In this document: one piece after another, positions 6,463 through 38,091 of the stretch | How positions within the stretch are numbered: position 1 is the first letter of the stretch | Layout of the letters: every line of letters begins with the position of its first letter | Source of the DNA: an uncultured Bacteroidales bacterium | GTDB lineage: Bacteria > Bacteroidota > Bacteroidia > Bacteroidales > FEN-979 | Direction: 5' to 3' | Assembly (NCBI GenBank): GCA_903837605.1 | Contig: CAILVF010000012.1 | Span: 15,679-79,678 of the forward strand | Length of the DNA stretch: 64,000 nt | Position numbers and translations under genes: made by a program | The notes under the pieces: generated by a model | Told to the model about the DNA's origin: nothing | The model's database searches: none | Seen by the model: the letters and a program-made list of their open reading frames with translations, nothing else

Positions 6463-6478
6463 GCCAAACATCGTTATT

Positions 6479-15531: not shown

Positions 15532-15800
15532 TCAGTTAAAATTGCGTTTGTCAACCGCAACGATTTAACGGGAGAAACCCGGGCAAACCGATCATTTTCT
15601 CAGTGTGCCTTTCTTTGAAGGCCAATGTAGTTCTTTCTATGATATACAATTCAGCTCATTGCCTACAGTTAATGCTAAAAATTATTGGTTTCAGTTTGAT
15701 AAAATTATTAGCTTTACACACAGGAAATAACCAGGATTCAAAACTCTCAAACTTGACTCCTGTATTTGGTTGTCAGCACCGGAACAAAAACAATTTGTTT

Positions 15801-17113: not shown

Positions 17114-17758
17114 ATGTTAAAAAAGATATTCAACCGGCGCACGCTTACCGATCTGATCATTTATCTTGGCATTCCCCTGGTAATTTGGAACAGCTGCAGG
17201 GGAATCCTGGGCGATTATCCTGCAATGCTTGCTTCCACGGTTCCGGGCATCGTTTATACCTTTTATACCTTCTTCAAAGAAAAGCAGTATAGCCTCACAG
17301 GCCTGTTTTTTATAACGACCATGCTCATTGGCAGCATCATGGATGTATATTCCAAAACGGCCATTCAGATGCTCTGGAACGATGTTTATATCAATGTGGC
17401 CCTGGTGATCTTCTGGTGTTTTACCATACTCATCCGCAGACCTATGGCAATGTATTTTTTTATTGATTATGCTTACCTGCACGGAATTCCAAAGGAGCGC
17501 TCAAAACCTCTGTATTCAGGGATGCCTTTTTTCAGATATTTCATGCTGCTTACAGGCTACCTGGCACTTCAGGACCTCTCGGATATATTCCTGAGAATTG
17601 GGCTTATACATATTTACGGTGTAAACGGATTTAATACGATCAAAATGATATCCCAGGTCTGGGGCACAGCGACGACAGCCCTTTTTGTTTATTTCATTAT
17701 TTTGATCATTAAAAGGATACAGCATCATTCCGATAATCAGCAAAACCAAAAACAATAG
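17114..17758 (+). CDS. hypothetical integral membrane protein
   Basis: 214-aa ORF with about six hydrophobic helices. No catalytic motif recognised. Confidence 0.5.
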   Translation: MLKKIFNRRTLTDLIIYLGIPLVIWNSCRGILGDYPAMLASTVPGIVYTFYTFFKEKQYSLTGLFFITTMLIGSIMDVYSKTAIQMLWNDVYINVALVIFWCFTILIRRPMAMYFFIDYAYLHGIPKERSKPLYSGMPFFRYFMLLTGYLALQDLSDIFLRIGLIHIYGVNGFNTIKMISQVWGTATTALFVYFIILIIKRIQHHSDNQQNQKQ

Positions 17759-17793: not shown

Positions 17794-18213
17794 ATGGAAA
17801 AGAAAAATTATGCTAATCCCCCATTGCCGCCGGCAACACCTAACACACCTTCAACTCCCGGTTCGCCTGTGAACCCCGAAACGGCTAAGACTGCAGGCAC
17901 GCCCGTCACCCCTGACCTGGCAGCCACACCCGGTGGTTCTTCAGCAATGCCTGCCGCTTCACCTGCCCCGGGAGATGGCAGCAAGCCAGCAGGAAAAATG
18001 CCCCCGATGCCCGGTTTCCCTAATCTTAAGGTATCGACGAATATGCAGAATACGACCAAAATGCCCAACGTCACCATGGAGCAGTTTAAAATGAGCAAGT
18101 TCTTCGAGGAACAGATGGAACATCACAAGCAGCATCACCTGCTGCCTAACGGAGACTGCAAGCCTCACATCAAGGAAGCGGGTTGGAAATATTTCAAGAA
18201 ATTCAGGGGATAA
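17794..18213 (+). CDS. hypothetical Pro/Thr/Ala-rich protein with a His-rich C-terminal region
   Basis: 139-aa ORF. The first ~75 aa are low complexity (PPLPPATPNTPSTPGSPVNPE...). The C-terminus reads EEQMEHHKQHHLLPNGDCKPH. No signal peptide is evident. An antisense ORF of similar length reflects the low complexity. Confidence 0.4.
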   Translation: MEKKNYANPPLPPATPNTPSTPGSPVNPETAKTAGTPVTPDLAATPGGSSAMPAASPAPGDGSKPAGKMPPMPGFPNLKVSTNMQNTTKMPNVTMEQFKMSKFFEEQMEHHKQHHLLPNGDCKPHIKEAGWKYFKKFRG

Positions 18214-18291: not shown

Positions 18292-19542
18292 ATGGATAAG
18301 ACAGAAAAAGCAAAATCATCGCCTTCGGGAGGGAATCCTGAGGAAATGAACCGGATGTTGAAGATCACACGTCCGCGCTACTGGATCTCACTTTCCGCCC
18401 TCGGGCTTCTTACCCTGATCGCCATTTTCTGGGGATTCTTCGGAAGTATCCCGCAGAGGATAGACGGTCTTGGCGAGATCATCAGCGGCAAAGGGCTTCA
18501 TGGAATCATAGCGCTTTATCCCGGAGGAGTGGAGGAAGTTAATTTTGAACTGGGAGAAAAGGTGGAGTCAGGAGATATCCTGCTTCATCTTTTACAACCG
18601 CAGCTCCGGCACCAGCTGGTTGAATTCAATGCCCAGCTTGATGTGCTCAGGCTGCAGGATTCACTCCTCTCGAACAGGGATGCCATGGATTATCCTAACA
18701 AGATGAGGTTTTACGACCTGGAGGAAGTGAGGCTGAAAAAGGAACTGGCCCAGCTGGAGGATCAGATAAGCTTCCTGCAGCTGAAGATGAACCAGCAGCA
18801 GGATCTCTGGGATAAAGGCCTTGCCACAAGAGAGAATTATGTGGATGCGAAAAACCAGCTTTCCGATACCCGAAACAAGCGCACACAAACGGAACAGTCT
18901 GTTAAAACCAACCAGCTCGACCAGCAGTCCTGGGAATATGACAGGCAATACAAGCAGGAAGATTACAGGGGTCAGATACAGATCATGAAGAAAAAAATGC
19001 AGGACCTGCAGGACGATTATGACCAGCAGACGATCATCCGCAGCCCTGTAAAAGGGATAATAGTGGATAAATCGGTAAGCAGCGGCGACTTTGTGAATGC
19101 AGGCACCCGGATGATGGTCGTTGAGGACCTGGGAAATGAAAAGAACCATCTGCTTGACCTGTTCATTCCATTTAATTCCAATGCCGTTGTCGAACCCGGG
19201 ATGGAAGTCATGATCGAGCCTTTCACCGTGAATCACAATCTATACGGCTGGCTTATGGGAGTCGTTGTTGAGGTCAACCATTTCGTTTCAAATACCAATT
19301 CAATAATTGACGAATTGAACAATCCCGACCTGGTGGCATTGATACAGCAGCAGGGGCCTACGTATCGGGTCAAGATATACCTTCTCCCCGACGCACAAAC
19401 CAAAAGCGGGTTCATGTGGTCAAACAAAAAGGGACCTCCCTACACCATTAATACCGGTACTCTTTGCCGTGCTTCGGTACTTGTGAAGCAAAAACCACCG
19501 ATCGACTATATTATTCCGGTGCTTAAATCCTATTTTGAATAG
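18292..19542 (+). CDS. HlyD-family periplasmic adaptor / membrane fusion protein (bacteriocin/NHLM-type secretion adaptor)
   Basis: It has one N-terminal TM helix (YWISLSALGLLTLIAIFWGFFG) and a long coiled-coil region rich in Q/L/E/K. A lipoyl-like hairpin (IIRSPVKGIIVDKSV..GDFV..G) and a beta-barrel tail follow. It sits directly upstream of two ABC transporters. Confidence 0.8.
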   Translation: MDKTEKAKSSPSGGNPEEMNRMLKITRPRYWISLSALGLLTLIAIFWGFFGSIPQRIDGLGEIISGKGLHGIIALYPGGVEEVNFELGEKVESGDILLHLLQPQLRHQLVEFNAQLDVLRLQDSLLSNRDAMDYPNKMRFYDLEEVRLKKELAQLEDQISFLQLKMNQQQDLWDKGLATRENYVDAKNQLSDTRNKRTQTEQSVKTNQLDQQSWEYDRQYKQEDYRGQIQIMKKKMQDLQDDYDQQTIIRSPVKGIIVDKSVSSGDFVNAGTRMMVVEDLGNEKNHLLDLFIPFNSNAVVEPGMEVMIEPFTVNHNLYGWLMGVVVEVNHFVSNTNSIIDELNNPDLVALIQQQGPTYRVKIYLLPDAQTKSGFMWSNKKGPPYTINTGTLCRASVLVKQKPPIDYIIPVLKSYFE

Positions 19543-19571: not shown

Positions 19572-21746
19572 ATGAGCAGCGATCATGTGAAAAAAAAGGT
19601 ACCGGTCATACTTCAGATCGGGGAAAACGAATCGGGCCCGGTAGCCCTGAACATGGTTTTCTCCTACTTCCGTTGCTGGCCGGCAAAAGATACGCTTAAT
19701 CAGGAATGCGGTGTTTCCGACAATTCCAAAATTCCTGTTGAACGGCTTATGAAAGTCGCCAGGGCCCATCACTTCATTTCGGATGTGCGGCAACCGGGCA
19801 TTGACGGATTAAAATCGTTGCGGCTGCCTGCAATTATCGGCATAAGGGGAGGGTATTTCAGCGTTCTTACAGGATATACGGGGGATTTTTTCCTTGTCAA
19901 CAGCACCAGGGAAGGGCAGCAGAAGATCACTGCTTCTGACCTTGAAAGCGTTTTCGACGGCAATGTGCTTACTCTTGAACCGGGGCCCGACTTCAAACCC
20001 GACAAGAAACAGTTCGGGTTTGCCGATAAAATATGGAGCCGGATAAAACCAAGCCGCTATGACCTGCTCTTCGTATTGATCTGCGGGGCAATTCTTGTGA
20101 TCCCTGCAGTGATCATGGCCGGTTTGAACAAGTTGTTTTTCGACGATATTATTAATCTTAACCAGCCGAGGTATTTCAGGCCCATGTTGCTGCTTATTGC
20201 CGGATTATTCTTCTTTAACGGCATCCTCACTTTCCTGCAGCAAAAGGTGCTGGTCAAAATCGAACTTCGCCTTGCGATCGTTGAATCTTCAAAACTTTTA
20301 CTCCATATCCTGAAGCTGCCCATCCGTTTCTTCATGACAAGGCAGCCTGGCGAGATATTTAAAAGGGTGCAGCTAAACGATGACCTGGCTGCACTTTTAT
20401 CCACAGAACTGACTTCTACCATTTCGAATATGATCACTGTTATCCTTTACGCGGTGGTCATGATACAATACAACTTTCTTCTGACCGTCATCGGGGTGAC
20501 CGTCATTCTTGTGAATCTTTTCGTTTTAAGGATAATTTCCGAAAAGAGATCTACTCTCAACCAGCTTCTTTTTGAAAGGAACCAGCGGACGTTCAGTACT
20601 GCAGGGGTGGGACTGGAGCAGATCGAAACGATCAAAGCCACAGGTTCCGAGAATGACTTTTACGGACTGTGGTCGGGAAGCCTTTCCAATGCCGTGGTTT
20701 ACGATCAGAGGCTTAATGTGACCTCCAACCTGCTGGATGCTCTTCCCGATTTTCTTTCTAATCTCAACAATATTATCCTGCTGACCCTTGGGGGATTGCT
20801 TGTGATATATGGCGATATGACCATTGGTATTTTCATCGCATTCCAGAGCCTGATGTCGAATTTCACAGGGCCTGTAAAATCGGTTGTATCAATGGGAAGT
20901 GATCTTCAGGTTGCAAAAAGCAACCTGAACACCATTCAGGACGCCTTATCTACAGGGGAGGACGTTTATTTCAACACCACGGTCAGTGATGACCCCGCAT
21001 CACTCAGCCCCGGGTCTTCCAAACTTCACGGTTTTCTGGATTTCACAAATGTGACCTTCGGGTACGACCGTTTTGCCGAACCCCTGATATCAGGGTTCTC
21101 CCTTCATGTTGAACCGGGAAAGAGGATTGCCCTGGTTGGCGGATCCGGTTCCGGCAAGTCAACCCTGGCCAAGCTTGTCGCAGGGCTTTACCATCCCTGG
21201 GAAGGGGATATACTGTTCGACGGCAGGAAAAGGACTGCTTATCCCCAGGACGTCATCAGGAATTCCATCTCCCTGGTCGACCAGGAAATTTTCATTTTCA
21301 AGGGTACTGTAAATGAGAATATCACCATGTGGAATAATACCATTCCCACCCCCGATATTATCCAGTCGACAAGGGATGCATGCATTCACGACATTATCTC
21401 ATCCAGGCCGGGCGGATATAACGGGATCCTGATCAATGCAGGGAATAACCTGAGCGGTGGTCAGAGGCAACGTATCGAGATTGCGAGGGCTCTCGTGGTG
21501 AATCCGACCATCCTGGTTATGGACGAGGCAACAAGCGCCCTGGATGCCAATACCGAGAAGATCATCGACAACAACATCCGCCGGCGCGGATGCACGACCC
21601 TGATCATCGCACACCGGCTCAGCACCATCCGCGACTGTGACGAGATCATAGTCCTGGACCGGGGAAAAGTGGTTCAGCGTGGCACTCACGATGAAATGAT
21701 CAAAGATCAGCAAGGGCTTTATTTCAAACTCGTAAATCTCAACTGA
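19572..21746 (+). CDS. ABC exporter (C39-like domain + permease + ATPase), bacteriocin/NHLM-exporter type, with a degenerate peptidase triad
   Basis: The N-terminal 135 aa align colinearly to C39 domains (VPVILQ.....G......M......). Six TM helices follow. Walker A is GGSGSGKST, the signature is LSGGQRQR, Walker B is LVMDEATSALD, and the H-loop is IAHRLST. The catalytic Cys, His and Asp positions read Ser21, Tyr95 and Asn110. Confidence 0.85.
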   Translation: MSSDHVKKKVPVILQIGENESGPVALNMVFSYFRCWPAKDTLNQECGVSDNSKIPVERLMKVARAHHFISDVRQPGIDGLKSLRLPAIIGIRGGYFSVLTGYTGDFFLVNSTREGQQKITASDLESVFDGNVLTLEPGPDFKPDKKQFGFADKIWSRIKPSRYDLLFVLICGAILVIPAVIMAGLNKLFFDDIINLNQPRYFRPMLLLIAGLFFFNGILTFLQQKVLVKIELRLAIVESSKLLLHILKLPIRFFMTRQPGEIFKRVQLNDDLAALLSTELTSTISNMITVILYAVVMIQYNFLLTVIGVTVILVNLFVLRIISEKRSTLNQLLFERNQRTFSTAGVGLEQIETIKATGSENDFYGLWSGSLSNAVVYDQRLNVTSNLLDALPDFLSNLNNIILLTLGGLLVIYGDMTIGIFIAFQSLMSNFTGPVKSVVSMGSDLQVAKSNLNTIQDALSTGEDVYFNTTVSDDPASLSPGSSKLHGFLDFTNVTFGYDRFAEPLISGFSLHVEPGKRIALVGGSGSGKSTLAKLVAGLYHPWEGDILFDGRKRTAYPQDVIRNSISLVDQEIFIFKGTVNENITMWNNTIPTPDIIQSTRDACIHDIISSRPGGYNGILINAGNNLSGGQRQRIEIARALVVNPTILVMDEATSALDANTEKIIDNNIRRRGCTTLIIAHRLSTIRDCDEIIVLDRGKVVQRGTHDEMIKDQQGLYFKLVNLN

Positions 21747-21747
21747 T

Positions 21748-24672
21748 ATGGACCCACAGGATATTACCTCATATTATACCCAGACCGTCCAGCTTTCCGG
21801 CAACAAGGTTCTTGCCCTTTTGAGTGAGAAAATGCAGGCCTGGTATCTTGAAGAAGGGGATGCTGATATTTTTTATGTCGAAAACCTGCCTTCGGGTCCC
21901 GGCCGCAGGCTTTTCCTTTTCAGGATTTCGTCACCCTTCCTCATCCCTGCGTTCAGCAGCAATGATGCATTCTCAATAGTGATCAGCGCGCTTCTTCCAT
22001 GCAAAGTCGGCATCTTGGGAGAGGAATCCCTGTCAGGGCTTTTTGCCGGCAAACCCGATTATTCCACTTATCTGACCGAACTCTGGTTCCTCAGGTTAAG
22101 CAGCGCTCTGAACCATTTCGGCGCAATGCCCCTGCTTAACGGAATAAGTTGCGAGAAGGGATTCGTTGCCGAACCTTCGAAGAATTACGGAGCCGCGAAC
22201 TCCATGGAAGTACTTTGGATCAGATCGTCGGGCCTCAAACCGGTCTATTTCAATTTCCTGGACCCTGGTCCTGACAGCCTCCCCCTGCTGCCTGTCACTT
22301 CCAACCTCTGGCTGAGCCTGGGTTCGGCCTTGCCGAAAGATGTCCTGGGAACCAGGGATGTCATTACGGATCCTGGGTTTTTAACATCACTGTTCGGATT
22401 CAACAGCATGGTCATACCCGTGCTTAAAAAACTGTATGCCGAAAACAGCAAAACGGAGCTAACGCATGTCAAGGATACTTACGCATTCAGGCATAACGCA
22501 ATCTTTGGCGCCATTACCAGGTTCAAAACTATCATCTCCGGAAAATCAACAGACACTCTTTTTACAGCAGGGGACAGGGAATCCGGCCCTTTGGCTTCGG
22601 TCACACCGAACATGCTTCTGCTCCAGACCTGCCAGCTGGTAGGGAAAACCGAACGTATTGAGTTCGTCGATCCCGGTAACCGCGTCAGCGGGAAGCATGA
22701 TTTTGTCTGGAACATCCTCAGGGCCTCCAATATCAGGTCAAGGCAGGTAGCGCTTGAGCCGGACTGGTGGACCAATAATGCAGGCTCCATGCTGGGTTTC
22801 CTGAAAGCCGACCATACCCCTGTAGGCCTTGTTGCGAAAGGCAATACAGGATACTGGATGATAGACCTTAAGAACAGGACGAAAGAATTAGTAAATGCAC
22901 AAGTGAGCAGCCGGCTCGAAAGCAGGGCAACCAGTTTTTTCACCCCCTTCCCTAAAGGAAAGCTGGTGGGGAAGGACCTTGTTAAGTTTGCCCTGCAGTT
23001 CACCTATCGTGACATCGCCAGTTTCCTCATCATCGGAGTTATCGGCGCCCTTCTGGCCCTTGTCATTCCGGTTGTGGGAGGATATGTGTTCAACACAGTA
23101 ATCCCCGGGGGAAACACCAGGGAACTCTGGCAGATAGGGGCCATAATGGTCATTTGCGTAATCACCATTGGCCTCTTGAATTTTGCAAAATCCATAGCAG
23201 TGTTAAGGATGGCAGGAAAAGCCGGGTACAAGCTGCAGTCGGCCCTCTGGGACAGGATACTTTCCCTGAAAGTGGATTTCTTCAGGAATTACAGTCCCGG
23301 CAACCTTGCCGAAAGGAGCATGGGCATCGAAAGGATACGCGATACCCTGTCCACCACGGTGCTGGGCGCCATCATTTCAGGCATCTTCTCGGTGTTCTAC
23401 CTGGCCCTACTGTTCTTTTACGACCTGAAACTTGCATTGCTTGCACTGGTCCTGGGTCTTGTTGTGGCAGGGTTTACCCTCACAATCAGCCTGCTGGCAT
23501 ACAAACACGTCGTCTTCATGCGCAGGATGGATGCGATGATCTCGGGTTTCCTGCTGATGGCTATCCGGGGCATCAATAAGATAAGGGTTACAGGCAGCAA
23601 GGAAAAGGTCTTTTCGCTTTGGGGTGAAAGGTATTCCCAGCAGAAAGACCATTATCGCCAGAAACGCAACCTCCTGATGGTAGCCAGCATTTTCACGGTC
23701 ACTTTCCCCGTAATGGCTTCCATGTTTATATTTATAAGGGTTTACAATATCTTTACCTCAGGCCTGCCGGGCTTCGGCATTGGTGACTTTGTAGCTTTCA
23801 ACAGCGCCTACCTGAGTTTTCAGGGGGCACTCATACAAACTTTCATGGTGACTGTCCCGTTGCTGAACATTAAGCCTACCTACCAGCTCTTCCAGCCTAT
23901 ACTTGAAGCTGAAACGGAAGACATGAACGAGAAGCTGGATCCGGGTGAACTTACCGGGGGCATAGAGATTTCGAACCTGAGTTTCAGGTATGCCGATGCT
24001 CCTGACTGGAGCCTCAAAGACATTACTCTTAATATTCATCCCGGCCAGTTTGTCGCGCTCACAGGGAGTTCGGGGTCAGGCAAATCAACTCTTATCAGGC
24101 TTCTCCTGGGCTTTGAATATTATGATGTTGGCAGCATACTGTTTGACAAGAAAGAACTTAAGGGACTTGACATCCGGAATGTGAGGGACCAGCTGGGAGT
24201 GGTACTTCAGAATTCCAAGATCATGCAGGGTACTGTACTGTATAATATCACAGGCTCTTCGTCTTACACAGAGGAGGAAGCCTGGAATGCTGCGGAAATG
24301 GCCGGCTGTGCCAGGGAAATTGAAGCACTTCCGAATAAAATGTACACCATACTTCCACCGGGGGGTGACATCCTTTCTGGCGGCCAGCAACAAAGGATCA
24401 TTATAGCCCGGGCGCTCATCAGGAACCCTAGGATATTGATCTTCGACGAGGCGACATCCGCCCTCGACAATGAAACCCAGCAGATTGTCAGCTCGAGCAT
24501 TGACAAACTGAACGCAACAAGGATAGTGATTGCGCACCGCCTCAGCACCATCATCCATGCCGACAGGATCTTTGTTTTGGATAAAGGCCGGCTCATTGAG
24601 GAAGGGAATTATACAGAGCTGGTAGCAAAGAACGGGTTCTTTGCCGAACTCACCAGGAGACAGCTTGCCTGA
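21748..24672 (+). CDS. second ABC exporter subunit (permease + ATPase) with an N-terminal extension of about 420 aa and unknown function
   Basis: It starts 1 nt after the upstream stop. The TM region begins near aa 425. Walker A is GSSGSGKST, the signature is LSGGQQQR, Walker B is LIFDEATSALD, and the H-loop is IAHRLST. The N-terminal domain has no peptidase motifs. Confidence 0.8.
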   Translation: MDPQDITSYYTQTVQLSGNKVLALLSEKMQAWYLEEGDADIFYVENLPSGPGRRLFLFRISSPFLIPAFSSNDAFSIVISALLPCKVGILGEESLSGLFAGKPDYSTYLTELWFLRLSSALNHFGAMPLLNGISCEKGFVAEPSKNYGAANSMEVLWIRSSGLKPVYFNFLDPGPDSLPLLPVTSNLWLSLGSALPKDVLGTRDVITDPGFLTSLFGFNSMVIPVLKKLYAENSKTELTHVKDTYAFRHNAIFGAITRFKTIISGKSTDTLFTAGDRESGPLASVTPNMLLLQTCQLVGKTERIEFVDPGNRVSGKHDFVWNILRASNIRSRQVALEPDWWTNNAGSMLGFLKADHTPVGLVAKGNTGYWMIDLKNRTKELVNAQVSSRLESRATSFFTPFPKGKLVGKDLVKFALQFTYRDIASFLIIGVIGALLALVIPVVGGYVFNTVIPGGNTRELWQIGAIMVICVITIGLLNFAKSIAVLRMAGKAGYKLQSALWDRILSLKVDFFRNYSPGNLAERSMGIERIRDTLSTTVLGAIISGIFSVFYLALLFFYDLKLALLALVLGLVVAGFTLTISLLAYKHVVFMRRMDAMISGFLLMAIRGINKIRVTGSKEKVFSLWGERYSQQKDHYRQKRNLLMVASIFTVTFPVMASMFIFIRVYNIFTSGLPGFGIGDFVAFNSAYLSFQGALIQTFMVTVPLLNIKPTYQLFQPILEAETEDMNEKLDPGELTGGIEISNLSFRYADAPDWSLKDITLNIHPGQFVALTGSSGSGKSTLIRLLLGFEYYDVGSILFDKKELKGLDIRNVRDQLGVVLQNSKIMQGTVLYNITGSSSYTEEEAWNAAEMAGCAREIEALPNKMYTILPPGGDILSGGQQQRIIIARALIRNPRILIFDEATSALDNETQQIVSSSIDKLNATRIVIAHRLSTIIHADRIFVLDKGRLIEEGNYTELVAKNGFFAELTRRQLA

Positions 24673-24725: not shown

Positions 24726-26255
24726 ATGAAAAAGACCATGTTCCTCCTTGCCCTGCTTGCTGCAGGCATCATGCCTGCTGCGGGGCAGGAGGCTTTTAAT
24801 TATGATTCACTGTCGATGCTGCGCCTTTTGGAATACGGCCTGCAGGCTAACTTTGACATCCGAATAAAAAGACAAATAGTAGGGGAAAGCCAGGGCCAGA
24901 AACAGAGCATGAAAGGTGCTTTCAACCCATCGCTGACCCTTACGGGTTACGGATATTACGGAACCGACCCAACCGTGACCTTTCTCAATTCCTATTACCT
25001 CAACGGACAGTTCCTCCTGCCGACACGTTTCGGGGCCAAATTCTATACAGGTTTCAAGCTGTCGACCATGACCCAGATCATCTCAGGGGTCCCCGATTTT
25101 TATCCAAGCACCAATATGGCAATTAACGCATCGGGCATGTGGGCCGGGGTCAATATGCCTCTTCTGCGTGACTTTGGAAGGTATAATACCAACAATGTAA
25201 ATTACCAGACAAGCATTATTATGAACCAGGCCCAGGACGTAGCGTTCTCTGATGAGGTATGCGTTTTTATAAGGAATACGCTCAATTCCTATTACGCCGT
25301 TTACCAGCGCCTTAAAATTTACAAGATCCTCGGTGATGCTGAAAAAGACGCCCAGGAATATTTGCGAGATATAGGGTACATGATTGATGCCGAACAGATA
25401 CCCAAATCGGAGATATACCGTGCAAAAGCATACGAGTCGAATATTAACCAGCAGTTCGCCGAGTCGAAGAACATGATCCATAATTCCCTGTATGACCTGG
25501 TCACGAGTTTAGGAGGGAAAGCTACGCTCAAACACAGGGGGTACCCGGTAATACTGGATTCCCTGCCCGATCCGGCCGAGTTCCCCTGGGGACCTTATGC
25601 CGCATATGTCTTCAAGAACACCGACACCCTGGTAGCAAAGACCCATTACCTCAAGAGCCAGGAACTTGCCACGACCGCCAGCATGATCCAGATGAAGGCA
25701 GCCAGGTATAACAAACGCAATGAACTCGACCTCGATCTCCGCTATTATTATTTCGGGACCACCGCATACCAGCCCTTTTCTGATTTCAGCCAGACTTTTT
25801 CAAGCGGTAGCCCCGGCTCATCTGTCAATCTTACTCTCTCTTACAAGCTGCCATTCTCAAATGATCAGCAAAAAGGTGATTATGTGAGCAAACTTTCGGC
25901 ATATGAACTGAATAAGACCCAGCTTGAAAAGGTGAGGTTCGATGCAAAGATGCAGGTTTACCAGCTGCTGAGCGACCTGGGGAACCTGATCAGCCTGTAT
26001 AAGAAACAGATTGAACTGGTTTCACTGGAGAAAAAAACTTTTGAAAATGAAGCCCAGAAGTTCAAAATGGGAAACTCCACCCAGATCAATGTGATCAATA
26101 CCTACATGGATTATAACACATCGCTGCTGAACCAGGAAAACGGCAGGCAGGCGATACTTTCAAAGGTGATCCTTCTTAAATACCTGATCGGTGAATTCCC
26201 CACTACCCCGGAACTGCTGTTAAAATACAATCCCTGGGACTTTTCGGTAAAATAA
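24726..26255 (+). CDS. TolC-family outer membrane efflux protein
   Basis: Signal peptide MKKTMFLLALLAAGIMPAAGQ. 509 aa with two-fold repeated helical/beta composition typical of outer membrane factor proteins. It sits directly after the adaptor and ABC genes. Confidence 0.7.
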   Translation: MKKTMFLLALLAAGIMPAAGQEAFNYDSLSMLRLLEYGLQANFDIRIKRQIVGESQGQKQSMKGAFNPSLTLTGYGYYGTDPTVTFLNSYYLNGQFLLPTRFGAKFYTGFKLSTMTQIISGVPDFYPSTNMAINASGMWAGVNMPLLRDFGRYNTNNVNYQTSIIMNQAQDVAFSDEVCVFIRNTLNSYYAVYQRLKIYKILGDAEKDAQEYLRDIGYMIDAEQIPKSEIYRAKAYESNINQQFAESKNMIHNSLYDLVTSLGGKATLKHRGYPVILDSLPDPAEFPWGPYAAYVFKNTDTLVAKTHYLKSQELATTASMIQMKAARYNKRNELDLDLRYYYFGTTAYQPFSDFSQTFSSGSPGSSVNLTLSYKLPFSNDQQKGDYVSKLSAYELNKTQLEKVRFDAKMQVYQLLSDLGNLISLYKKQIELVSLEKKTFENEAQKFKMGNSTQINVINTYMDYNTSLLNQENGRQAILSKVILLKYLIGEFPTTPELLLKYNPWDFSVK

Positions 26256-26284: not shown

Positions 26285-29200
26285 GTGAACAGATTCACAC
26301 CCATACATGAGGAAATTTTTTCAATTGCGGCGACAAAGCCTGCTGATGCTGCAGTTATTCAGGGCGGGGAGATCCTGACATACGGGGACCTTGAATCCTT
26401 TTCATCGACCCTTGCCGCCTTGCTCCGGGACCTTGGGTCGGGCCCTGGTAAATGCGTGGGAATTTACCTGGAACCCTCACTGCGGATGGCAGTCTGCCTT
26501 TTGGCTGTCCTGAAGTCGGGAGCAGCCTATATCCCTGTTTCACCAGCTTTCCCGGCGGAAAGGATAAAATTTATCCTTGACGATGCAGGAGCCTGCCTGC
26601 TTATTTCAGATCCTTTGCTTCCGCAGCCTTACGGACTGGAAAAAACGAAAATTTTCTTTCCCGACTGGGACCTTGTAACAGATCCTCAAAGGCAGAGAAA
26701 GTGCGAAGCCCTTCACCCTGAACCCGCTGACCTTGCCTACATTCTTTATACTTCAGGATCCACGGGCAATCCCAAAGGCGTAATGATAGAACACCGGAAC
26801 CTGTCCTATTACGTTCACTGGTTCTGCGAAAAGGTCATGCCCCAAACCCGCGTCGCATTGCCTCTTACTTCCTCTTTTATTTTTGCGGCAGCAGTTACCC
26901 AGTTCTATTCCACCCTTCTCGACGGGAGGGCCCTGCACATCCTGGATCCCATGCTCATCAGGCAGCCTGCTGCATTAATGGAATGGTACACTCATCATCC
27001 CGGTCACGGCATCTACTGTGTTCCGACATTATGGTCGGGGATCCTCGGTTTTTTAAGGTCTGCGGATGGCCGTGTACCCGGTCTCACTCCGCCTCCCGTT
27101 GTATATCTTTCGGGGGAGGCCGTTCCCGATGAAATGATTGAAACGACCTTCGAAAGCCTTCCGCAGTCACAATTATGGAACCTGTACGGCCCAACCGAGG
27201 CCACGGCCAATATAACAGCCTGCAGGCTGTACCCGGGAGACAAATCGCATATCGGGAACCCCCTCGACGGCACCAGGGTGTTTATAGTGGATGAGAACCT
27301 TGAACCTGTAAAACAGGGGGAAATTGGGGAACTCCTTGCCTCAGGGGAAGGAATTGCAAGGGGATATGTCAATCTTCCTGAACTTACAGCCTCCACATTC
27401 ATTTACCGGGGAATGAACGGGGAAGAGAACCTGAAGCTATACAGGTCGGGCGACCTGGTGAGGGAGGAAGCTCCGGGCAAACTGAAATTTATCGGCCGTA
27501 AGGACCAGCAGGTCAAGATCCGGGGATACCGGGTCGAACTGTCCGAGATCGAGCATGCCCTTTCAGCTGTTCCTTCAGTAAAACATGCAGCAGTCAGGGC
27601 TCTTGAAAACGGAGGTGAATCGAAAACACTGGTCGCCTGGCTCATGTTCCGCGAGAACGGGTCGATGAGCATTCCCCAGCTGCGTTCCATCCTGGGAAGG
27701 ACCCTGCCCGATTTCATGCTTCCCGAAAGGTTTATCATCCTTGACCGTTTTCCCCTTCTCCCGAACGGGAAAACCGACCGCAGGTCACTTCCCCTGCCCG
27801 GATCGGAAAGACCTGAATTGGGCTATCCTGCAGCCGTTGCTGTCTCGGCCGGGGAAAAGGCCATGGTAAGGATATGGGAAGAGGTCCTTGGCATGGAAGG
27901 GATAGGGACGGATGACAATTTTTTCGATCTCGGGGGAAATTCACTTAAAGCCAACGCCCTGTCAATAGAGACCAGGTTGAGGATGGAAGGACAGGTTTCA
28001 CTCAGGGATATATTCGAGAACCCTACGCCTGCGGGGCTGCTGCGGATTGCAGTTGCCCGGAAGGGAACCGTTGAGGAGAATAAGGTAATACCGGCTTTGG
28101 AAAGCCCTGTATCTGATATAAGGGAACGGTCAGTGAAAGATGCTTCAGAAAACCAGAAGGCACTTTGGTTCCTGCAGCATGCCGAACCCCAATTATGCGC
28201 TTACAATATCTTTTATTCCGTTTGCCTTGACGGACCGCTTGATGTGAATCACCTGGGCGGGGCGCTGGAGAGGATCCTCGAAGTCAACCCGGGCCTAACC
28301 TCTGCTTTTCTTCCCGGTGCCGATTCACCTGTTGAGAAATCCATCCCCGGGCAGGGAAATAGTACCCGGGAGATTATGACAGTCATAACAGGCCAGTCAG
28401 TTAGCCGGGAAGATGCCCTGGGGCTGGCCAGGCTGGAAGCCTCAAAACCGTTTGAACTCGGTAAAGGCAGTCCCTTCAGATTTATCCTTTACAGCACAGG
28501 ACATGACTCTCATATATTGGCTGTGATTATTCACCACATTGTCTTTGACGGCCTGTCGTTCGGCAACTTTCTCCTGCAGCTCAGGGATTTTTATGATGAG
28601 GCGAAAGCCGGCTTACGCCCGGCAGGATCGCGCCGCATGGACAGGATCAGCAGCTTTGCCGCAGAAGAAAGGGCCTACCTTGAAAGCGCAGCTTACCAGT
28701 CCGACAGGGCATACTGGAAAAACCTTCTCGGCGGGGTTTCCACATTTTACGAGCTTCCAACCGATTTCGTGCGTCCTGAAGGAATGTCACAGGCTGGCGG
28801 GCAGGTCAGGACGAAGATTGACCCGGCGTTGATGGAACGATTAAAAGCCTTCAGCGACAGTTCGGGGGCCAGCATGTTCATGACCTGCCTGGCGGCATTC
28901 TCGGTCCTTCTCTACAGGCATTCAGGGCGCCTCGATTTCCTTATTGCCACTCCCGTGGCGAACAGGAACAGCAGGGATTTACTGGGTTCTTTGGGGTATT
29001 ATGTCAATACCATGCTGTTCAGGACAGGTATAGACCCTGCCCTGCCCTTCGCTGGCTGGCTTGGCAGGCTTAAGGAGCAAACCCTTGAAAGCCTTTCGCA
29101 CTCCCGCTTTCCCCTCAATCACCTTACAGGCCTTATCCTCACCGACAGGATACCCGGTATCAATCCTTTCTTTCAGGTCATGTTCGCCTACCACGAAACA

Positions 29201-31366
29201 GCATGGGATTTCATTGCATCAGGTCCCCTGAAAATCAAAGGCAGGGAGGAATTTAACGGGTTCTCAAAATTCGACCTCTATACTGAATTTTTCTGCAGCC
29301 CGTCGGAAACGCAACTTGTCTTCACTTATTCAGCCGCACTTTACCGCCGGGAGACCATGGAAGCGCTTGCCGCTCACCTGGTACAGATTTTATCCTCGGT
29401 ATGCGGGGCTCCCGGGGATCCCTTGTATGGACTCAGCATGATGTCTAGGTCAGAGTACGAAAAAGTGGTTTATGGCTGGAACAATACCCTGCACCCACTG
29501 CCCCCGGGAAAAACATTGCCGGGGATGATCCTGGAGCAGGTCTGCCTCACACCCGGCAATACAGCCCTTGTTTCGAGGACCACCAGCTATACGTACAGTG
29601 AAATGGGTGAAAAAGCCTCCATGCTTGCCGATGCCCTGAGGAAGCTTGGAATTAAAAAATCGGATCCCGTGGGGATACATCTTGAGAACTCACCCGACAT
29701 GGTCCTTTGCATCCTGGCCGTATTCCTGGCAGGAGCCGTATACATACCCCTGGATCCTTATTATCCCGAAGAGCGCCTGCGCTATGTAATTGAAAAGACC
29801 GGCACGAAACTCCTGGTCACCGATGAAGAAAGGAGAGACGGGAGGGAACACTTCCCGGCAAGGCTTGTGTCGCCCGGCGAACTCATGAATTTATCGGCTC
29901 CCGGCGGGGAGCCCAATTGCAGATGCAATGCGCAGGATGTTGCCTACATCATGTTCACCTCGGGCTCCACGGGAAATCCAAAAGGTGTAGTAATCAGGCA
30001 TGACAGCCTTCTCAACTTCCTTCTCTGGATGAAAGACGAACTGGCATTTGGCCCGGGCGATTCGTTTCTTTCCACGACATCGATCAATTTCGACATTTCG
30101 TTCCTGGAGCTGTTCACGCCCCTTATCAGCGGAGCCAGGCTGGTGATTGAAAAAAGGAGCGAGCTGCAGGCGCCCGAGAAAGTAGAAGCCATATTGAACG
30201 GGATGAAGGTGAATACGGTGCAGTTCGTCCCCTCGGGATGGAAAGCCCTTTGCGATGCGGGGGTGCCTTCCAGGGTCAAATCTCTTAAAACAATGATATC
30301 CGGCGGGGAGAAGCTCTCAAAGAACCTGCAGGAACAACTCTTTGCCCAGTCGGCTGCATCCCTGCTAAATCTTTACGGCCCTACCGAAGCCACGGTATAC
30401 ATGGCTTTCTGGCGTTGTGTAAGGGACAGCAGGCTTAGGATGGTTCCCATCGGGAGGCCTATATACAACGCAGCATTTTATATCCTTGACGGAGAGCTGA
30501 AGCCGGTCCCGGTGGGAGTGACAGGAGAAGCCTGGCTTGGGGGCAACATTCTTGCCGAAGGGTATTTTGATGATGATCTGCAGACGGCATCCCGTTTCCT
30601 GCCCGATCCTTTTTCAGGGGTGCCCGGGGCGAAGATGTACAGGGCAGGGGATCTTTGCCGTTTCCTTGCCGACGGAGCCATCGAGTTTCTCGGGCGCATC
30701 GACCACCAGGTCAAGGTCAGGGGTTTCAGGATAGAACCGGGTGAGGTCGAATCGACCATACTTCGTTTCAAAGGAGTTTCCAGGGCTATTGTCCATGCAC
30801 AGGAGCATGGGGAGGATGACATCCGCCTTACAGCCTTCCTTGTGCCTTCAGGCCCTGAAGGAGTCGATGAATACGCACTCAGGGAGTTCCTGAGGCTGCA
30901 TTTGCCTGCATATATGATACCCGGCCATTTCATTACGGCTCCCGCAATCCCGGCACTTCCCAACGGGAAAACTGATTACAAGTCGCTTCTGAAGATGAGG
31001 CCGGCAGCCCCTGTGCTCCCAAAGTTCATCAGGGAAAAGATGAATGAAACGGAGGAACAGCTCAAGAACATATGGAAAGATCTCCTGGGGCACGAATCCT
31101 TTACGGTGACCGACAATTTTTTTGAAGTCGGCGGGCACTCCCTTCTGCTGGTAAGGATGAAAGACCAGATTGCCGAAAAGATGAAAGAGGAAGTGAGCAT
31201 TGTCGATCTGTTTCATTATCCTACCATCAGGAGCATCTCTGTTTTCCTTAGGAAGGAGATTAAAGGCCACGACCATTCCGACATTGAAAGAAGGGTGGCA
31301 TCAAGGAATAAAAGTATCAGGCAACAAGTAAGCAAACGATTATTTCGCGGTAATAATGAACACTAA
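26285..31366 (+). CDS. nonribosomal peptide synthetase, two modules (A-T-C-A-T)
   Basis: GTG start. Module 1 motifs: YILYTSGSTGNPKGV, NLYGPTE, GRKDQQVKIRGYRVE, PNGKTDR, FFDLGGNSL. The condensation motif is HHIVFDGLS. Module 2 motifs: YIMFTSGSTGNPKGV, NLYGPTE, GRIDHQVKVRGFRIE, PNGKTDY, FFEVGGHSL. Confidence 0.95.
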   Translation: MNRFTPIHEEIFSIAATKPADAAVIQGGEILTYGDLESFSSTLAALLRDLGSGPGKCVGIYLEPSLRMAVCLLAVLKSGAAYIPVSPAFPAERIKFILDDAGACLLISDPLLPQPYGLEKTKIFFPDWDLVTDPQRQRKCEALHPEPADLAYILYTSGSTGNPKGVMIEHRNLSYYVHWFCEKVMPQTRVALPLTSSFIFAAAVTQFYSTLLDGRALHILDPMLIRQPAALMEWYTHHPGHGIYCVPTLWSGILGFLRSADGRVPGLTPPPVVYLSGEAVPDEMIETTFESLPQSQLWNLYGPTEATANITACRLYPGDKSHIGNPLDGTRVFIVDENLEPVKQGEIGELLASGEGIARGYVNLPELTASTFIYRGMNGEENLKLYRSGDLVREEAPGKLKFIGRKDQQVKIRGYRVELSEIEHALSAVPSVKHAAVRALENGGESKTLVAWLMFRENGSMSIPQLRSILGRTLPDFMLPERFIILDRFPLLPNGKTDRRSLPLPGSERPELGYPAAVAVSAGEKAMVRIWEEVLGMEGIGTDDNFFDLGGNSLKANALSIETRLRMEGQVSLRDIFENPTPAGLLRIAVARKGTVEENKVIPALESPVSDIRERSVKDASENQKALWFLQHAEPQLCAYNIFYSVCLDGPLDVNHLGGALERILEVNPGLTSAFLPGADSPVEKSIPGQGNSTREIMTVITGQSVSREDALGLARLEASKPFELGKGSPFRFILYSTGHDSHILAVIIHHIVFDGLSFGNFLLQLRDFYDEAKAGLRPAGSRRMDRISSFAAEERAYLESAAYQSDRAYWKNLLGGVSTFYELPTDFVRPEGMSQAGGQVRTKIDPALMERLKAFSDSSGASMFMTCLAAFSVLLYRHSGRLDFLIATPVANRNSRDLLGSLGYYVNTMLFRTGIDPALPFAGWLGRLKEQTLESLSHSRFPLNHLTGLILTDRIPGINPFFQVMFAYHETAWDFIASGPLKIKGREEFNGFSKFDLYTEFFCSPSETQLVFTYSAALYRRETMEALAAHLVQILSSVCGAPGDPLYGLSMMSRSEYEKVVYGWNNTLHPLPPGKTLPGMILEQVCLTPGNTALVSRTTSYTYSEMGEKASMLADALRKLGIKKSDPVGIHLENSPDMVLCILAVFLAGAVYIPLDPYYPEERLRYVIEKTGTKLLVTDEERRDGREHFPARLVSPGELMNLSAPGGEPNCRCNAQDVAYIMFTSGSTGNPKGVVIRHDSLLNFLLWMKDELAFGPGDSFLSTTSINFDISFLELFTPLISGARLVIEKRSELQAPEKVEAILNGMKVNTVQFVPSGWKALCDAGVPSRVKSLKTMISGGEKLSKNLQEQLFAQSAASLLNLYGPTEATVYMAFWRCVRDSRLRMVPIGRPIYNAAFYILDGELKPVPVGVTGEAWLGGNILAEGYFDDDLQTASRFLPDPFSGVPGAKMYRAGDLCRFLADGAIEFLGRIDHQVKVRGFRIEPGEVESTILRFKGVSRAIVHAQEHGEDDIRLTAFLVPSGPEGVDEYALREFLRLHLPAYMIPGHFITAPAIPALPNGKTDYKSLLKMRPAAPVLPKFIREKMNETEEQLKNIWKDLLGHESFTVTDNFFEVGGHSLLLVRMKDQIAEKMKEEVSIVDLFHYPTIRSISVFLRKEIKGHDHSDIERRVASRNKSIRQQVSKRLFRGNNEH
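26297..27784 (+). other. NRPS1 adenylation domain A1 (starter; lacks Asp235)
   Basis: Core motifs A3-A10 are intact. The A4 region reads SSFIFAAAVTQFYSTLLDG, where FDxS is normally found. Confidence 0.85.
27842..28054 (+). other. NRPS1 thiolation (PCP) domain T1
   Basis: FFDLGGNSLKA; the phosphopantetheine Ser is at aa 553. Confidence 0.85.
28136..29434 (+). other. NRPS1 condensation domain
   Basis: HHIVFDGLS (HHxxxDG) at aa 750-758, plus the flanking C-domain architecture. Confidence 0.85.
29507..30979 (+). other. NRPS1 adenylation domain A2 (hand-read code DILQIGLVYK, Gly-like)
   Basis: Code residues come from INFDISFLE, TVQFVPS, MISGGE, LNLYGPTEATVY and the Lys of PNGKTDY. Compare the published Gly code DILQLGLIWK. 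Confidence 0.7.
31037..31249 (+). other. NRPS1 thiolation domain T2
   Basis: FFEVGGHSLLL; Ser at aa 1619 (nt 31139-31141, TCC). Confidence 0.85.
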
Positions 31367-34300
31367 TATGAGCACGATGAGCGAAAGCGGATCAAATAAT
31401 ATGGAAGGCAAAATAGCTATCATTGGAATGGACTGCCGTTTGCCGGGAGCCGGTAATGTTGGTGAATACTGGAAGAACCTGGTCAACGGGCTGGAAACCC
31501 TGAGCACTTTTACCGACGAGGAACTGATCGCATCGGGAGTAGATCCTGCGGTGTTCCGGCAGCCGAACTACATCAGGAACCGCGGGATCATCGGCGGTGC
31601 CGAGTTTTTTGATGCTGAATTTTTCGGCTTCACCCCCCGCGACGCCGAATTGCTGGATCCCCAGCAGAGGATATTTCTCGAATGCGCATGGCATGCGCTG
31701 GAAGACGCAGGGGTTGATCCGTATAATACCCGGGAAAGGATAGGTGTTTTCGGAGGCACGGGCACCCCGCTTCATCTTATTGAGACCATGGAGAACCCCT
31801 GGGTTAGGAAGAACGCCAGCGGTGCTTCTATTGTAACCAGCAACGACAAGGACTATGTGACGACGAGAGTGTCGTACAAACTCAATCTCACCGGGCCCAG
31901 CGTGAACGTGCAGAGCGCGTGTTCGACTTCGCTGGTGGCCGTGGTCACGGGGATCAACAGCCTCATCAGTTACCAGAGCGACCTGATCATTGCCGGCGGG
32001 GCAACCATTGAACTACCCGAAAGGCATGGCTATTTATACCAGGCAGGCGGAATGGAATCGGCCGACGGCCATTGCAGGACATTCGACAAGGATGCCAACG
32101 GCACTGTCTTCAGCAGGGGCTGCGGAGTGGTGGTCCTGAAACGACTGGAAGATGCAGTGAGGGACAGGAATAATATTTATGCCGTCATCCTGGGGGGTGC
32201 CATCAACAATGACGGGAATAAAAAAGCGGGATTCACGGCTCCCTCCGTTGAGGGACAGGTGGAGGTGATCACCGAAGCCCTGGCCATTTCGGATGTGTCG
32301 GCCGACACTATCACCTATGTGGAAGCCCATGGGACGGCCACGCCTGTGGGAGATCCCATCGAAGTCACTTCTCTTTCGGAATCGTTCAGGAAGCATTCCC
32401 GGCGCAAGCAATACTGTGCCATTGGTTCCGTGAAGTCCAACATAGGCCATACCGATATCGCCTCCGGGGCGGCAAGCCTGATCAAAACGGCCCTTTGCCT
32501 TAAAAATCGAAAGATACCGGCCAGCCTGCATTTTAATGAACCAAACCCGAAGATCGATTTCCCCAACAGCCCTTTCTTTGTAAATACAGAGTTAAGGGAA
32601 TGGCAGGCCGTGGACGGGACCCCTCTCAGGGCCCTGGTAAACGCTTTCGGAGTAGGAGGGACGAACGCCTGCCTGATCCTGGAAGAAGCACCGCCACCTG
32701 AACCGGTCAAAGCTGATCTTCCCTGCGACCTGCTGCTGGTCTCGGGCCGGAGCTCAAATGCCGTATCGGAAGCCCAGCGTGCGATCAGGGCTTTCCTTGA
32801 GTCGGATCCCGCAGCCGACCCTCATGCAATTGCCTTCACCTCACGTTATGGCCGCCATCATTTTCTCAACCGGGCAGCCATCCCTTTCAGGAGCAGGGAA
32901 GAATTGATTTCACAACTGGGGAGCCGCGTACCTGTCCCCATTAAAAATGACAGCCGCAAGCCTGTCGTCTTTATGTTCCCAGGCCAGGGGAACCAGTATA
33001 TCCGCATGGGCCTGCCCCTGTATGAGTCCAATGAGGTCTTCAGAAACACCATTGACCAGTGCTCAGAGATCCTTAAGCAGGAACTCGGGTTCGATATCCG
33101 CACGGTCTTGTTCCCGTCCCCCTCTGATGAGCTTGACGCGGCTCAAAGGATCAATGAAACCTGGATCACCCAGCCGGCCCTGTTCTTGGTAAGCTATGCC
33201 CAGGCGAAGCTGCTGATGTCGCTCGGTATAGAACCCGACATGCTCATCGGCCACAGCGTTGGGGAATATGTTGCCGCCGCGATCTCGGGAGTGTTTTCAC
33301 TGCAGGATGCCCTGAAAGCCGTTGCCAGGAGGGGCAGGCTGATCCAGGACCTGCCCGGGGGTTCCATGCTGGCCGTCCTGATGACCGAAGAACAGCTCAA
33401 CCCCATTCTTCCCGAAGGCCTTGAAATAGCCGTTGTGAACAGCCCGGGATTATGCGTAGCCTCAGGGCCTGCCGAACTCATCGACCGTTTTTCGGAAGAG
33501 CTGAACAAAACCAGGACATTCAATAAAAAAATCCCTACCTCCCACGCCTTTCATTCAGCCATGATGGATCCCGTGCTGCCGGTGTTTGCTGAGTTTTTCA
33601 AACAGGTGAAGCTTTCGCCCCCGACCATCCCCATCGCTTCTACGGTGACCGGCCAGTGGATGGAGCCGGAACAGGCCACCAATCCCGATTTCTGGGTGAA
33701 GCATGTTAGGAAAACCGTCAGGTTCGGCAATGCCGCCAGGCTATGCCTGGAAGGCAAACCGGCTGTCTTCATTGAGTCGGGCCCGGGCCAGAGCCTTGAG
33801 TCGGCGGTCAAACGGCAACTCACAAAAGAAACTGAACATGCCGTGTTAAGCACCATCCCGTCGGTTGACAACAAGGCCGACGGCCTCCTCTTCCAGTATG
33901 CCGCCATCGGGCAGGTGTGGGCCTCGGGAGGACCATTAAGCTGGGAGCTCTTTGACAGGCGGGAAGGCAGGCTGGTTTCCTACCCTCTCTATCCTTATGA
34001 GCGCAAGCCATACATGATCGATTTCAGCAGGAAAGAAGGGGCAAAAATCAAATCGGAAAACAAAAAGAAGCCCGACCCTGGGCATTGGTTCTATATACCG
34101 GGATGGAAACGTACTGCCCCCGCCGGCCTCATCCCGTCCAACGGGATGGCCGATCACCGGGCAGACCGGGAGAAGGCTTGCTGGCTGCTGTTTGTTGATA
34201 CAGGGGACTTATGCAATGAAGTTGCGGCTCAGCTCATAAAGGCAGGTGAAAAGATTTTTTACGTGAACAGGGGTGCCGCCTTTGAGAGGAAAGGAAATGT

Positions 34301-36956: not shown

Positions 36957-38091
36957 CGATCTACTGAAAAAGATTGCCGGGCTGAGCCCGGTCCAGAAGG
37001 AAGCCCTGCTGAAAAAGCTGGGGATTTCTTCAATTAAATCCTCTGCGGATGAGTGCGCGGGTGAGAAGGAAAAGCTTCCCGGCTGTGCTTGTTTTGCCTG
37101 CGATTTCGGATTGCCCGGATCGCTGAACATCAGTTTCAGGGAAGCCGCAACCGGGCCCCCGCCTCCGGGTTATGTCCAGGTTAAAGCAAAGGCCGCCAGC
37201 CTGAACTACCGCGACCTGATGATCGCCATGGGGCATTACCCCGCTGCTCCGGGCGTGCCATCCAACATGGGTTCCGATTTTGCCGGGATTGTAACGTCAG
37301 TGGGGGAAGGAGTAAGTGAGTTCAGGGAGGGGGACGAGGTGATCGCCCTTTCGGCAGGAACATTCCTGGAAGGGGCGGTTCAGCCGGGCAGCCATTTTAT
37401 AAACGTGTTCAATGTAAACCGTCTGCAGCTGGCTCCCAAGCCGAAAACCCTGGATTTTGAGCAGGCGGCAGCGATCCCCACGGTATATCTCACGGCTTTT
37501 TCGGCCTTGCTCAGGCTTGGCCGTCTCAGCGAAAATGAAACCGTTTTGATCCATACCGCCACCGGGGGCGTTGGATTGGCAGCACTGGGGATTGCCCGCT
37601 GGAAAAAAGCAGTGGTCTATGCGACGGCAGGCACCCCCGAAAAAAGGGATTTTCTTAAAAGCAAAGGGATTGCCGAACCCATGGATTCCCGTTCTGAAGC
37701 TTTTGCCGGCAGGATCATGGAACTTACAGGGGGCCGGGGAGTGGATATTGTCATGAACACCCTCTCGGGAAATGCCATGATGAAAGGCCTTGAAATACTT
37801 TCACCATTCGGGCGCTTCATCCAGATCGATAAAAAAGATATTGCTATGAACACCCCCCTGCCCATGGGCTTGTTCAGGAAGGGGATAACGTTCAGCGCAC
37901 TTGACATATCACTTTATCTTCTGCAACCCGCCATGCTCAGGGAGCAGATGCATGAGATCATTACGCTGCACGATGAGAAAATATTCGAACCGCTGCCGCT
38001 TCAGGCATGGCCCGTAAGCCGACTGAAAGAGGCTCTAACCGTAATGTCGCGTTCGAAACATATCGGTAAACTCATACTTACCTATCCTTAG
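36946..38091 (+). CDS. stand-alone MDR-family enoyl reductase (PKS_ER / quinone-oxidoreductase-like) with an N-terminal docking-like peptide
   Basis: The ATG at 36946 overlaps the PKS stop by 11 nt; the listed 36940 is a TTG. MDR motifs: VQVKAKAASLNYRDLMIAMGHYP, GDEVIAL, VLIHTATGGVGLAAL. The N-terminal ~60 aa are not part of the MDR fold and carry LSPVQKEALLKKLG. Confidence 0.8.
   Translation: MNHDDLLKKIAGLSPVQKEALLKKLGISSIKSSADECAGEKEKLPGCACFACDFGLPGSLNISFREAATGPPPPGYVQVKAKAASLNYRDLMIAMGHYPAAPGVPSNMGSDFAGIVTSVGEGVSEFREGDEVIALSAGTFLEGAVQPGSHFINVFNVNRLQLAPKPKTLDFEQAAAIPTVYLTAFSALLRLGRLSENETVLIHTATGGVGLAALGIARWKKAVVYATAGTPEKRDFLKSKGIAEPMDSRSEAFAGRIMELTGGRGVDIVMNTLSGNAMMKGLEILSPFGRFIQIDKKDIAMNTPLPMGLFRKGITFSALDISLYLLQPAMLREQMHEIITLHDEKIFEPLPLQAWPVSRLKEALTVMSRSKHIGKLILTYP

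Follow-up and report, generated by a model that had tools for sequence, protein, structure and literature searches.

A C39-fold domain without its catalytic triad on an NHLM-type exporter encoded beside NRPS-PKS genes in Bacteroidota

What purpose can a peptidase domain serve on an exporter when all three of its catalytic positions are substituted, and what does such an exporter carry when its genes lie directly upstream of a non-ribosomal peptide synthetase (NRPS) and polyketide synthase (PKS) assembly line? The question is raised by ABC1, a protein of 724 amino acids composed of an N-terminal C39-like domain, an ABC permease and an ATPase. It is encoded at 19572..21746 (+) of a 64,000-nucleotide stretch, here called the window, which was taken from contig CAILVF010000012.1 (assembly GCA_903837605.1) of an uncultured Bacteroidales bacterium; the window sequence is identical to contig JBAXIO010000021.1 of a Bacteroidota metagenome-assembled genome. 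We propose, with a probability of roughly 0.6, that the domain is a non-catalytic pseudo-peptidase of the C39 fold, carried by an exporter of the type that serves peptides that are made by the ribosome and modified after translation (RiPPs), and that this exporter has been recruited to export an NRPS-PKS product.

The C39-like domain comprises residues 10–139 of ABC1 (window 19599..19988 (+)), where Pfam PF03412 matches with 51.3 bits relative to a cutoff of 22. The alignment register was set by a phmmer alignment to the peptidase domain of LahT (PDB code 6mpz), which gives a constant offset of +6, and the codon positions were read directly from the window DNA. Since the active-site residues of LahT are Gln21, Cys27, His101, and Asp117 (PMC6363468), the oxyanion-hole glutamine is retained as Gln15 (CAG, 19614-19616 (+)), while the three triad positions are occupied by Ser21 (TCG, 19632-19634 (+)) for the nucleophilic cysteine, Tyr95 (TAT, 19854-19856 (+)) for the histidine, and Ser111 (AGC, 19902-19904 (+)) for the aspartate. 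Alignments with about 100 homologues confirm this register, with ‘ECG...NHF...NDP’ in the canonical proteins against ‘ESG...GYF...NST’ in the window protein. The first-pass annotation of this DNA had noted the retained glutamine and named the same serine and tyrosine codons, and these assignments are upheld. It was also right that all three catalytic positions are substituted, but the set is Ser/Tyr/Ser and not Ser/Tyr/Asn, because the residue that it took for the aspartate equivalent, Asn110 (AAC, 19899-19901 (+)), is off by one and corresponds to LahT Asn116, the conserved asparagine of ‘NDP’. The alignment, which it described as free of gaps, is nearly so, with one single-residue gap in each sequence relative to LahT. 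In addition, the Bacteroidales relatives have a one-residue insertion at ‘SDNSKIP’ compared with canonical members. Relatives at 77–90% identity mostly retain ‘NDT’ at the aspartate position. Dozens of independent assemblies carry the same substitutions, which rules out chance or sequencing error.

The transporter itself is readily placed. ABC1 matches Pfam Peptidase_C39, ABC_membrane and ABC_tran, and its best NCBIfam match by far is TIGR03796 (NHLM_micro_ABC1; 801 bits, E = 8.7e-241), although the score falls short of the curated cutoff of 853.3. The two neighbouring genes exceed the cutoffs of the corresponding models, i.e., an HlyD-type membrane-fusion protein at 18292..19542 (+) (TIGR03794, 246.8 bits, cutoff 156.2), and ABC2, a second permease/ATPase of 974 amino acids with a long N-terminal extension, at 21748..24672 (+) (TIGR03797, 778.6 bits, cutoff 709.4). 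The Walker A, signature, Walker B-Glu and H-loop elements are all intact in the ATPase domain of ABC1, and the ATPase domain of ABC2 also has intact motifs. To place ABC1 among its full-length homologues, a neighbour-joining tree was used that is independent of the C39-like domain, because it was built from the transmembrane domain (TMD) and nucleotide-binding domain (NBD) only; in this tree, the proteins with serine at the cysteine position nest among canonical NHLM ABC1 members. Canonical members carry a conserved ‘F-x-x-G-G’, a double-glycine motif inside the transporter, in the linker just past the peptidase domain. The Bacteroidales proteins of the serine clade do not have this motif, and the linker instead reads ‘FKPDKKQFGF’ (ABC1 residues 141-150, window 19992-20021 (+)).

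The AlphaFold2 (AF2) model of ABC1 residues 1–150 (pLDDT 91, pTM 0.86) has the C39 fold, and Foldseek ranks LahT (6mpz) closest, with a TM-score of 0.85–0.89 and an rmsd of 1.3 Å, followed by PCAT1 (query TM-score, TMq, 0.85), ComA (about 0.78), and HlyB’s C39-like domain (CLD; PDB code 3zua; TMq 0.70). Domain profile scores are 182 bits for LahT, 84 for ComA, 77 for PCAT1, and 41 for the HlyB CLD. The first-pass description of a C39-like domain is supported: the fold is that of C39, and the thiol-protease triad is absent. The further suggestion in the first-pass annotation, that the domain is of the kind known from RTX-toxin exporters, had to be abandoned. Apart from the low score and TMq for 3zua, the HlyB CLD is distinguished by a retained histidine stacked on a tryptophan (PMC8277102), and such a stack is impossible here, because the relevant strand of ABC1 reads ‘PAIIGIRGGYF’ and contains neither residue. 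Nor are there RTX repeats in the window, where a six-frame scan returned one isolated GGxGxD, and the domain belongs to a protein nested in the NHLM ABC1 family. Given its much closer resemblance to LahT, PCAT1, and ComA than to the HlyB CLD, the domain is not an RTX-type CLD but a separate degeneration among NHLM ABC1 proteins, where catalysis was lost independently.

How far the loss extends can be seen from the relatives. Cysteine is absent in all 55 relatives with at least 45% identity to ABC1, and its place is taken by serine in all but one, whereas the canonical Cys/His/Asp state is seen from about 46% identity downward. All 55 Ser-type proteins form one clade on the neighbour-joining tree, with zero Cys-bearing members inside. 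Within the clade, the three positions behave differently: serine is nearly invariant at the cysteine position; the histidine position holds histidine in P0033 and P0034 only, and otherwise Y, N, K, R, G, S, D, or E; and the aspartate position is mostly Asp, lost only in a few lineages and changed to serine only in the lineage of the window (at least 95% identity). The pattern fits one founding Cys-to-Ser change at the base of the clade, which would have been followed by decay of the histidine and later of the aspartate. P0033 and P0034 (locus L003, 10001-12166) have a complete Ser-His-Asp set, and may represent either an intermediate state or a Ser-dependent hydrolase. Outside the clade, P0106 and P0109 (locus L036, 8419-10578) form a separate branch of the NHLM ABC1 family with Gly/Gln/His at the three positions, and this lineage shows a second, independent loss of the triad. 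Among the 150 nearest cluster representatives of the domain at 50% identity, Cys/His/Asp occurs in 131 and a degenerate set in about 19.

If the domain does not cut leaders, the genes around it should indicate what is exported in place of a RiPP. In the window, the HlyD, ABC1 and ABC2 genes lie directly upstream of NRPS and PKS genes according to Pfam and NCBIfam matches, so that the first-pass description of an NHLM-type two-ABC context beside an NRPS/PKS is correct. ABC2 is followed by a TolC-like outer-membrane factor (OMF) at 24726..26255 (+) (Pfam OEP, 56.9 bits), the position of which is conserved in all related loci. An NRPS with Pfam domain order A-T-C-A-T follows at 26285..31366 (+), and starts 29 nt past the end of the OMF gene; the first of its A domains scores 346 bits with TIGR01733, a model of amino-acid adenylation. 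The intergenic distances along HlyD, ABC1, ABC2, OMF, and NRPS are 29, 1, 53, and 29 nt, and no terminator-like site was found in these gaps, that between OMF and NRPS included. The genes past the OMF are on the same strand, and are separated by at most 30 nt or overlap. They encode a type I PKS module with Pfam domains KS-AT-KR, a DH-like domain and ACP (31356..36956 (+)), an enoyl-reductase-like protein of the zinc-binding alcohol-dehydrogenase family (ADH_zinc_N; 36940..38091 (+)), a second NRPS, C-A-T-TE, that constitutes the release module (38101..42210 (+)), a 4'-phosphopantetheinyl transferase (PPTase; 42162..42980 (+)), and a 4,5-DOPA extradiol dioxygenase of the LigB family (42993..43826 (+); NF007914, 316 bits, cutoff 233), with which the same-strand run ends. 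The dioxygenase gene hints at a ring-cleaved, DOPA-derived building block.

The association is not particular to the window. Genomic loci of the serine clade were drawn from Bacteroidales, Lentimicrobiaceae, Flavobacteriaceae, and Saprospiraceae, together with one bin labelled Hyphomicrobiales, and at species level the HlyD-ABC1-ABC2-outer-membrane-protein cassette lies beside NRPS or PKS genes in 23 of 23; the same arrangement is seen in 6 of 6 metagenome look-ups. Two of the genome loci belong to cultivable carriers, Asprobacillus argus S356 (L026) and Pseudotenacibaculum sp. MALMAid0570 (L029). The link between triad variants and NRPS/PKS neighbourhoods that the first-pass annotation had raised is therefore clade-wide. 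Of the 23 genome loci, 20 have an A-T-C-A-T NRPS that starts directly past the OMF gene and on its strand. Genes for PKS, glycosyltransferase and PPTase flank the exporter in two others (L028 and L031) and in metagenome locus L005, and in one genome locus a C-A-T-TE NRPS lies convergent to the exporter, together with a PPTase. In this Flavobacteriaceae subgroup (L005 1-8151, L028 2-7779, L031 15-5322), the NRPS is replaced by PKS (AT, KR, DH), PhyH, several glycosyltransferases, and a PPTase, which suggests that a glycolipid-like polyketide is exported.

Canonical Cys/His/Asp transporters served as controls, and RiPP genes adjoin them in 3 of 3 loci: LanM in L033, a precursor with a Nif11 leader in L034, and, in L035, four precursors with ‘LEDxxGG’ leaders accompanied by two rSAM/SPASM enzymes and PqqD. 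Neither a regular expression nor tblastn with the real precursors from the control loci gave a credible precursor with a double-glycine leader in the window or the clade loci, and no NHLP or Nif11 precursor was found there either, the search being limited to the window and these loci. The original definition of the three-gene cassette rested on the NHLP and Nif11 precursors that occur together with it, and its assigned function was leader cleavage plus export (Haft et al. 2010; PMC2887384). The serine clade departs from that co-occurrence criterion and from leader cleavage plus export. A search of the full-text literature returned no paper on dead-peptidase NHLM exporters beside NRPS/PKS genes, or in Bacteroidota, and it seems that no earlier work describes the change from RiPP to NRPS/PKS neighbourhoods across this clade.

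A different cargo could be encoded just upstream of the exporter. A small, Pro-rich protein of 139 amino acids (17794..18213 (+)) directly precedes HlyD; it has no family match in Pfam or NCBIfam, and neither a signal peptide nor a transmembrane helix. Relatives of 67–171 amino acids are likewise encoded directly before HlyD in about 20 related loci that range from Bacteroidales to Flavobacteriaceae (e.g., L001 8355-8636, L008 8412-8726, L003 8158-8535, and L026 8410-8703). They share a layout: the start is rich in Lys, the linker is rich in Pro and Thr and varies greatly in length, and the C-terminal segment, of about 35 amino acids, is conserved and has a ‘D-x-N-G’ motif. This segment reads ‘HHKKxHLDxNGxxKP’ in Bacteroidales and ‘QYRDANGKITCPV’ in Flavobacteriaceae. 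The exporter could then be a type I secretion system for this putative cargo, where the C39-like domain docks the unfolded, uncleaved protein in the manner that the HlyB CLD tethers HlyA, and the NRPS-PKS product is only functionally associated or co-exported. Binding of unfolded cargo that carries a C-terminal signal is known for CLDs (PMC8277102), and a partner of this kind would help to explain why a conserved surface persists at the old active site. However, the small gene is absent from L005, L028, L031 (the loci with PKS and glycosyltransferase genes) and from L007/L032, all of which keep a Ser-type domain; the homology between the Bacteroidales and Flavobacteriaceae proteins is weak; and a regulator or accessory factor would fit the position equally well. 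We consider this assignment unlikely.

The surface in question emerges from the pattern of selection, which was measured across 16 Bacteroidales orthologues, and which also bears on whether the domain could be a functionless relic, retained only through its fusion to an essential transporter. Mean amino-acid identity is 67% in the C39-like domain, 87% in the TMD, and 88% in the NBD, and dN/dS is about 0.15, 0.04, and 0.04, respectively, values that are rough because dS is saturated. In terms of dN, the domain evolves about three times faster than TMD and NBD. Divided by core identity, domain identity comes to 0.55–0.79 in the serine clade, much below the 1.0–1.3 of canonical members. Together with the catalytic residues, the canonical conserved residues E17, A18, A24, V37, L39, R43, G52, S53, A56, W91, and A113 are lost, and many of these positions fall on helices that in LahT make up the groove for the leader (PMC6363468). 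These points speak for a relic. On the other hand, a dN/dS of about 0.15 is far from neutral, the domain is present at full length in 55 of 55 clade members down to 45% identity with zero truncations, its fold is predicted with high pLDDT, and each subclade carries its own strongly conserved motifs within it. Conservation within Bacteroidales is highest around the former active-site helix, in the stretch ‘VPVILQIGENESGPVAL’. Constraint on the domain is thus relaxed compared with the transporter core but clearly not absent, and the relic explanation is, in our estimate, improbable, somewhat more so than a small-protein cargo.

The weakest alternative is an active hydrolase with Ser21 as nucleophile, which would, e.g., deprotect the NRPS-PKS product while it is exported. 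It can draw on the near-invariance of the serine, on the retained Gln15, and on the full Ser-His-Asp set of P0033 and P0034, but is highly improbable; the first-pass annotation had already named a Ser-based hydrolase as the less likely reading. Tyrosine and serine stand at the His and Asp positions of the window protein, which leaves no general base, and at least eight different residues occur at the histidine position across the clade, unlike a catalytic residue. Moreover, the first NRPS begins with an A domain and lacks a starter C domain for N-terminal acylation as in lipopeptides, a domain with which the known acyl-D-Asn prodrug modules begin.

We therefore return to the non-catalytic domain on an exporter recruited for an NRPS-PKS product. 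The ancestor would have been an NHLM exporter that cut double-glycine leaders off ribosomal peptides, and that was recruited into an NRPS-PKS operon in a Bacteroidota lineage. The present-day exporter would be a trans-envelope machine assembled from the HlyD adaptor, a presumed ABC1/ABC2 heterodimer, and the TolC-like channel. From the structure of the operon and the synteny across the clade, the most likely cargo is a non-ribosomal peptide-polyketide produced by the A-T-C-A-T / KS-AT-KR-ACP(+ER) / C-A-T-TE line. Because such a cargo carries no leader, proteolysis would be dispensable, and the domain probably lacks hydrolytic activity. In PCAT-type transporters, the peptidase domain has further functions: it docks on the transmembrane/ATPase core, and it brings cargo into position at the lateral entrance on the cytoplasmic side. 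The domain of ABC1 probably has a role of this sort, whether structural, in gating or in binding, either through docking on the core and shaping of the entrance, as in PCAT1, or through binding of cargo, as in the HlyB CLD.

Several points weigh against this proposal. The cargo is assigned from gene adjacency alone, and the precursor gene search was confined to the window and the clade loci rather than whole genomes. The small Pro-rich protein could be the cargo, or a ligand of the domain. A purely structural role does not account for the near-invariant Ser21 and the conserved surroundings of the old active site, the saturation of dS makes the selection estimates approximate, and the Ser-His-Asp set in two members may leave residual hydrolytic activity somewhere in the clade. 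More tentatively, we entertain a stronger form of the proposal, namely that a Bacteroidota lineage turned a leader-cleaving RiPP exporter into a dedicated two-membrane exporter for NRPS-PKS or PKS products, and that the dead domain was re-tooled to bind a clade-specific ligand, either the product or the small Pro-rich protein. This is possible, though it is considerably less probable than the more general form. If true, with the small Pro-rich protein as ligand, the latter would represent a new kind of export partner or co-cargo.

The pairing of ABC1 with ABC2 is supported by P0310 (1485 aa), a natural fusion that joins a canonical ABC1 (Cys/His/Asp) and an ABC2 in one polypeptide, and we infer that the two form a heterodimer also in the window. 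The long N-terminal extension of ABC2 contains, at residues ~10-125 (window 21775-22122 (+)), a predicted CRP/cNMP-binding-like β-roll, for which Foldseek returns CprK, CRP, and PKA-R. The model suggests that the ABC2 N-terminus is a small-molecule sensing domain on the transporter; the ABC2 proteins of Flavobacteriaceae (about 750 aa) do not have it. Before the TMD, at residues ~287-400 (window 22606-22947 (+)), there is an α/β module whose conservation extends to all NHLM ABC2 proteins, the canonical ones among them. The order of its secondary-structure elements parallels the C39 fold, and in hhalign alignments the module is in register with the C39 β-sheet, with probabilities of 11% and 1.8% that are not significant. 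A PDB sequence search with the module gave no match, and Foldseek results for the ABC2 N-terminal model are dominated by the CRP-like domain. The module may be an ancient second pseudo-peptidase domain.

Farther upstream, a VC0807-family membrane protein (17114..17758 (+); NF041646, 92 bits) is syntenic in Bacteroidales loci. A delta-60-repeat β-propeller protein is encoded upstream of the exporter (15603-17108 (+)), and is syntenic in many Bacteroidales loci. The cluster is surrounded by several large proteins with C-terminal sorting domains of the type IX secretion system (T9SS; window 14-14400 and 44007-48050 (+)). Among them are a C10 peptidase, an S8 subtilase, a 2174-aa β-helix/LamG protein, and a 1347-aa protein.

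If the domain is read as we propose, non-catalytic C39-like domains arose more than once, and are not confined to RTX toxin exporters. A signature that combines ‘ESG’ for ‘ECG’, loss of ‘W-x-x-x-H’, and an NRPS/PKS neighbourhood would separate NRPS/PKS-linked NHLM exporters from true RiPP exporters. Current annotation labels all of them ‘bacteriocin export ... peptidase’, and genome mining could wrongly predict RiPP clusters from it. The clade also offers a natural system for the non-proteolytic roles of the peptidase domain in PCAT-type transporters, and a candidate two-membrane export route for non-ribosomal products in Bacteroidota.

Three known systems provide the most relevant comparisons. 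As for the HlyB CLD, the domain has a C39 fold without the catalytic cysteine, belongs to an exporter with an HlyD adaptor and a TolC-like channel, and is presumably non-proteolytic. It differs from the HlyB CLD in its independent origin, in the absence of both the histidine and the tryptophan, and in the presence of two distinct ABC genes, compared with a single ABC gene in HlyB systems. With the active peptidases LahT, PCAT1, and ComA, it shares the fold, the N-terminal position on an ABC exporter, and the oxyanion glutamine, and LahT is the best match in both sequence and structure. Unlike these enzymes, it has Ser/Tyr/Ser in place of Cys/His/Asp and altered conserved residues in helices α1–α3, and no double-glycine precursor was found nearby. 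Finally, all three genes of the NHLM cassette (TIGR03794/03796/03797) are present in the same order, and ABC1 nests within its family; what sets the window apart from that cassette is a peptidase that is apparently dead, an ABC1 that scores 801 bits where 853.3 is the cutoff, and an OMF gene and an NRPS-PKS operon in the place of precursors and RiPP-modifying enzymes.

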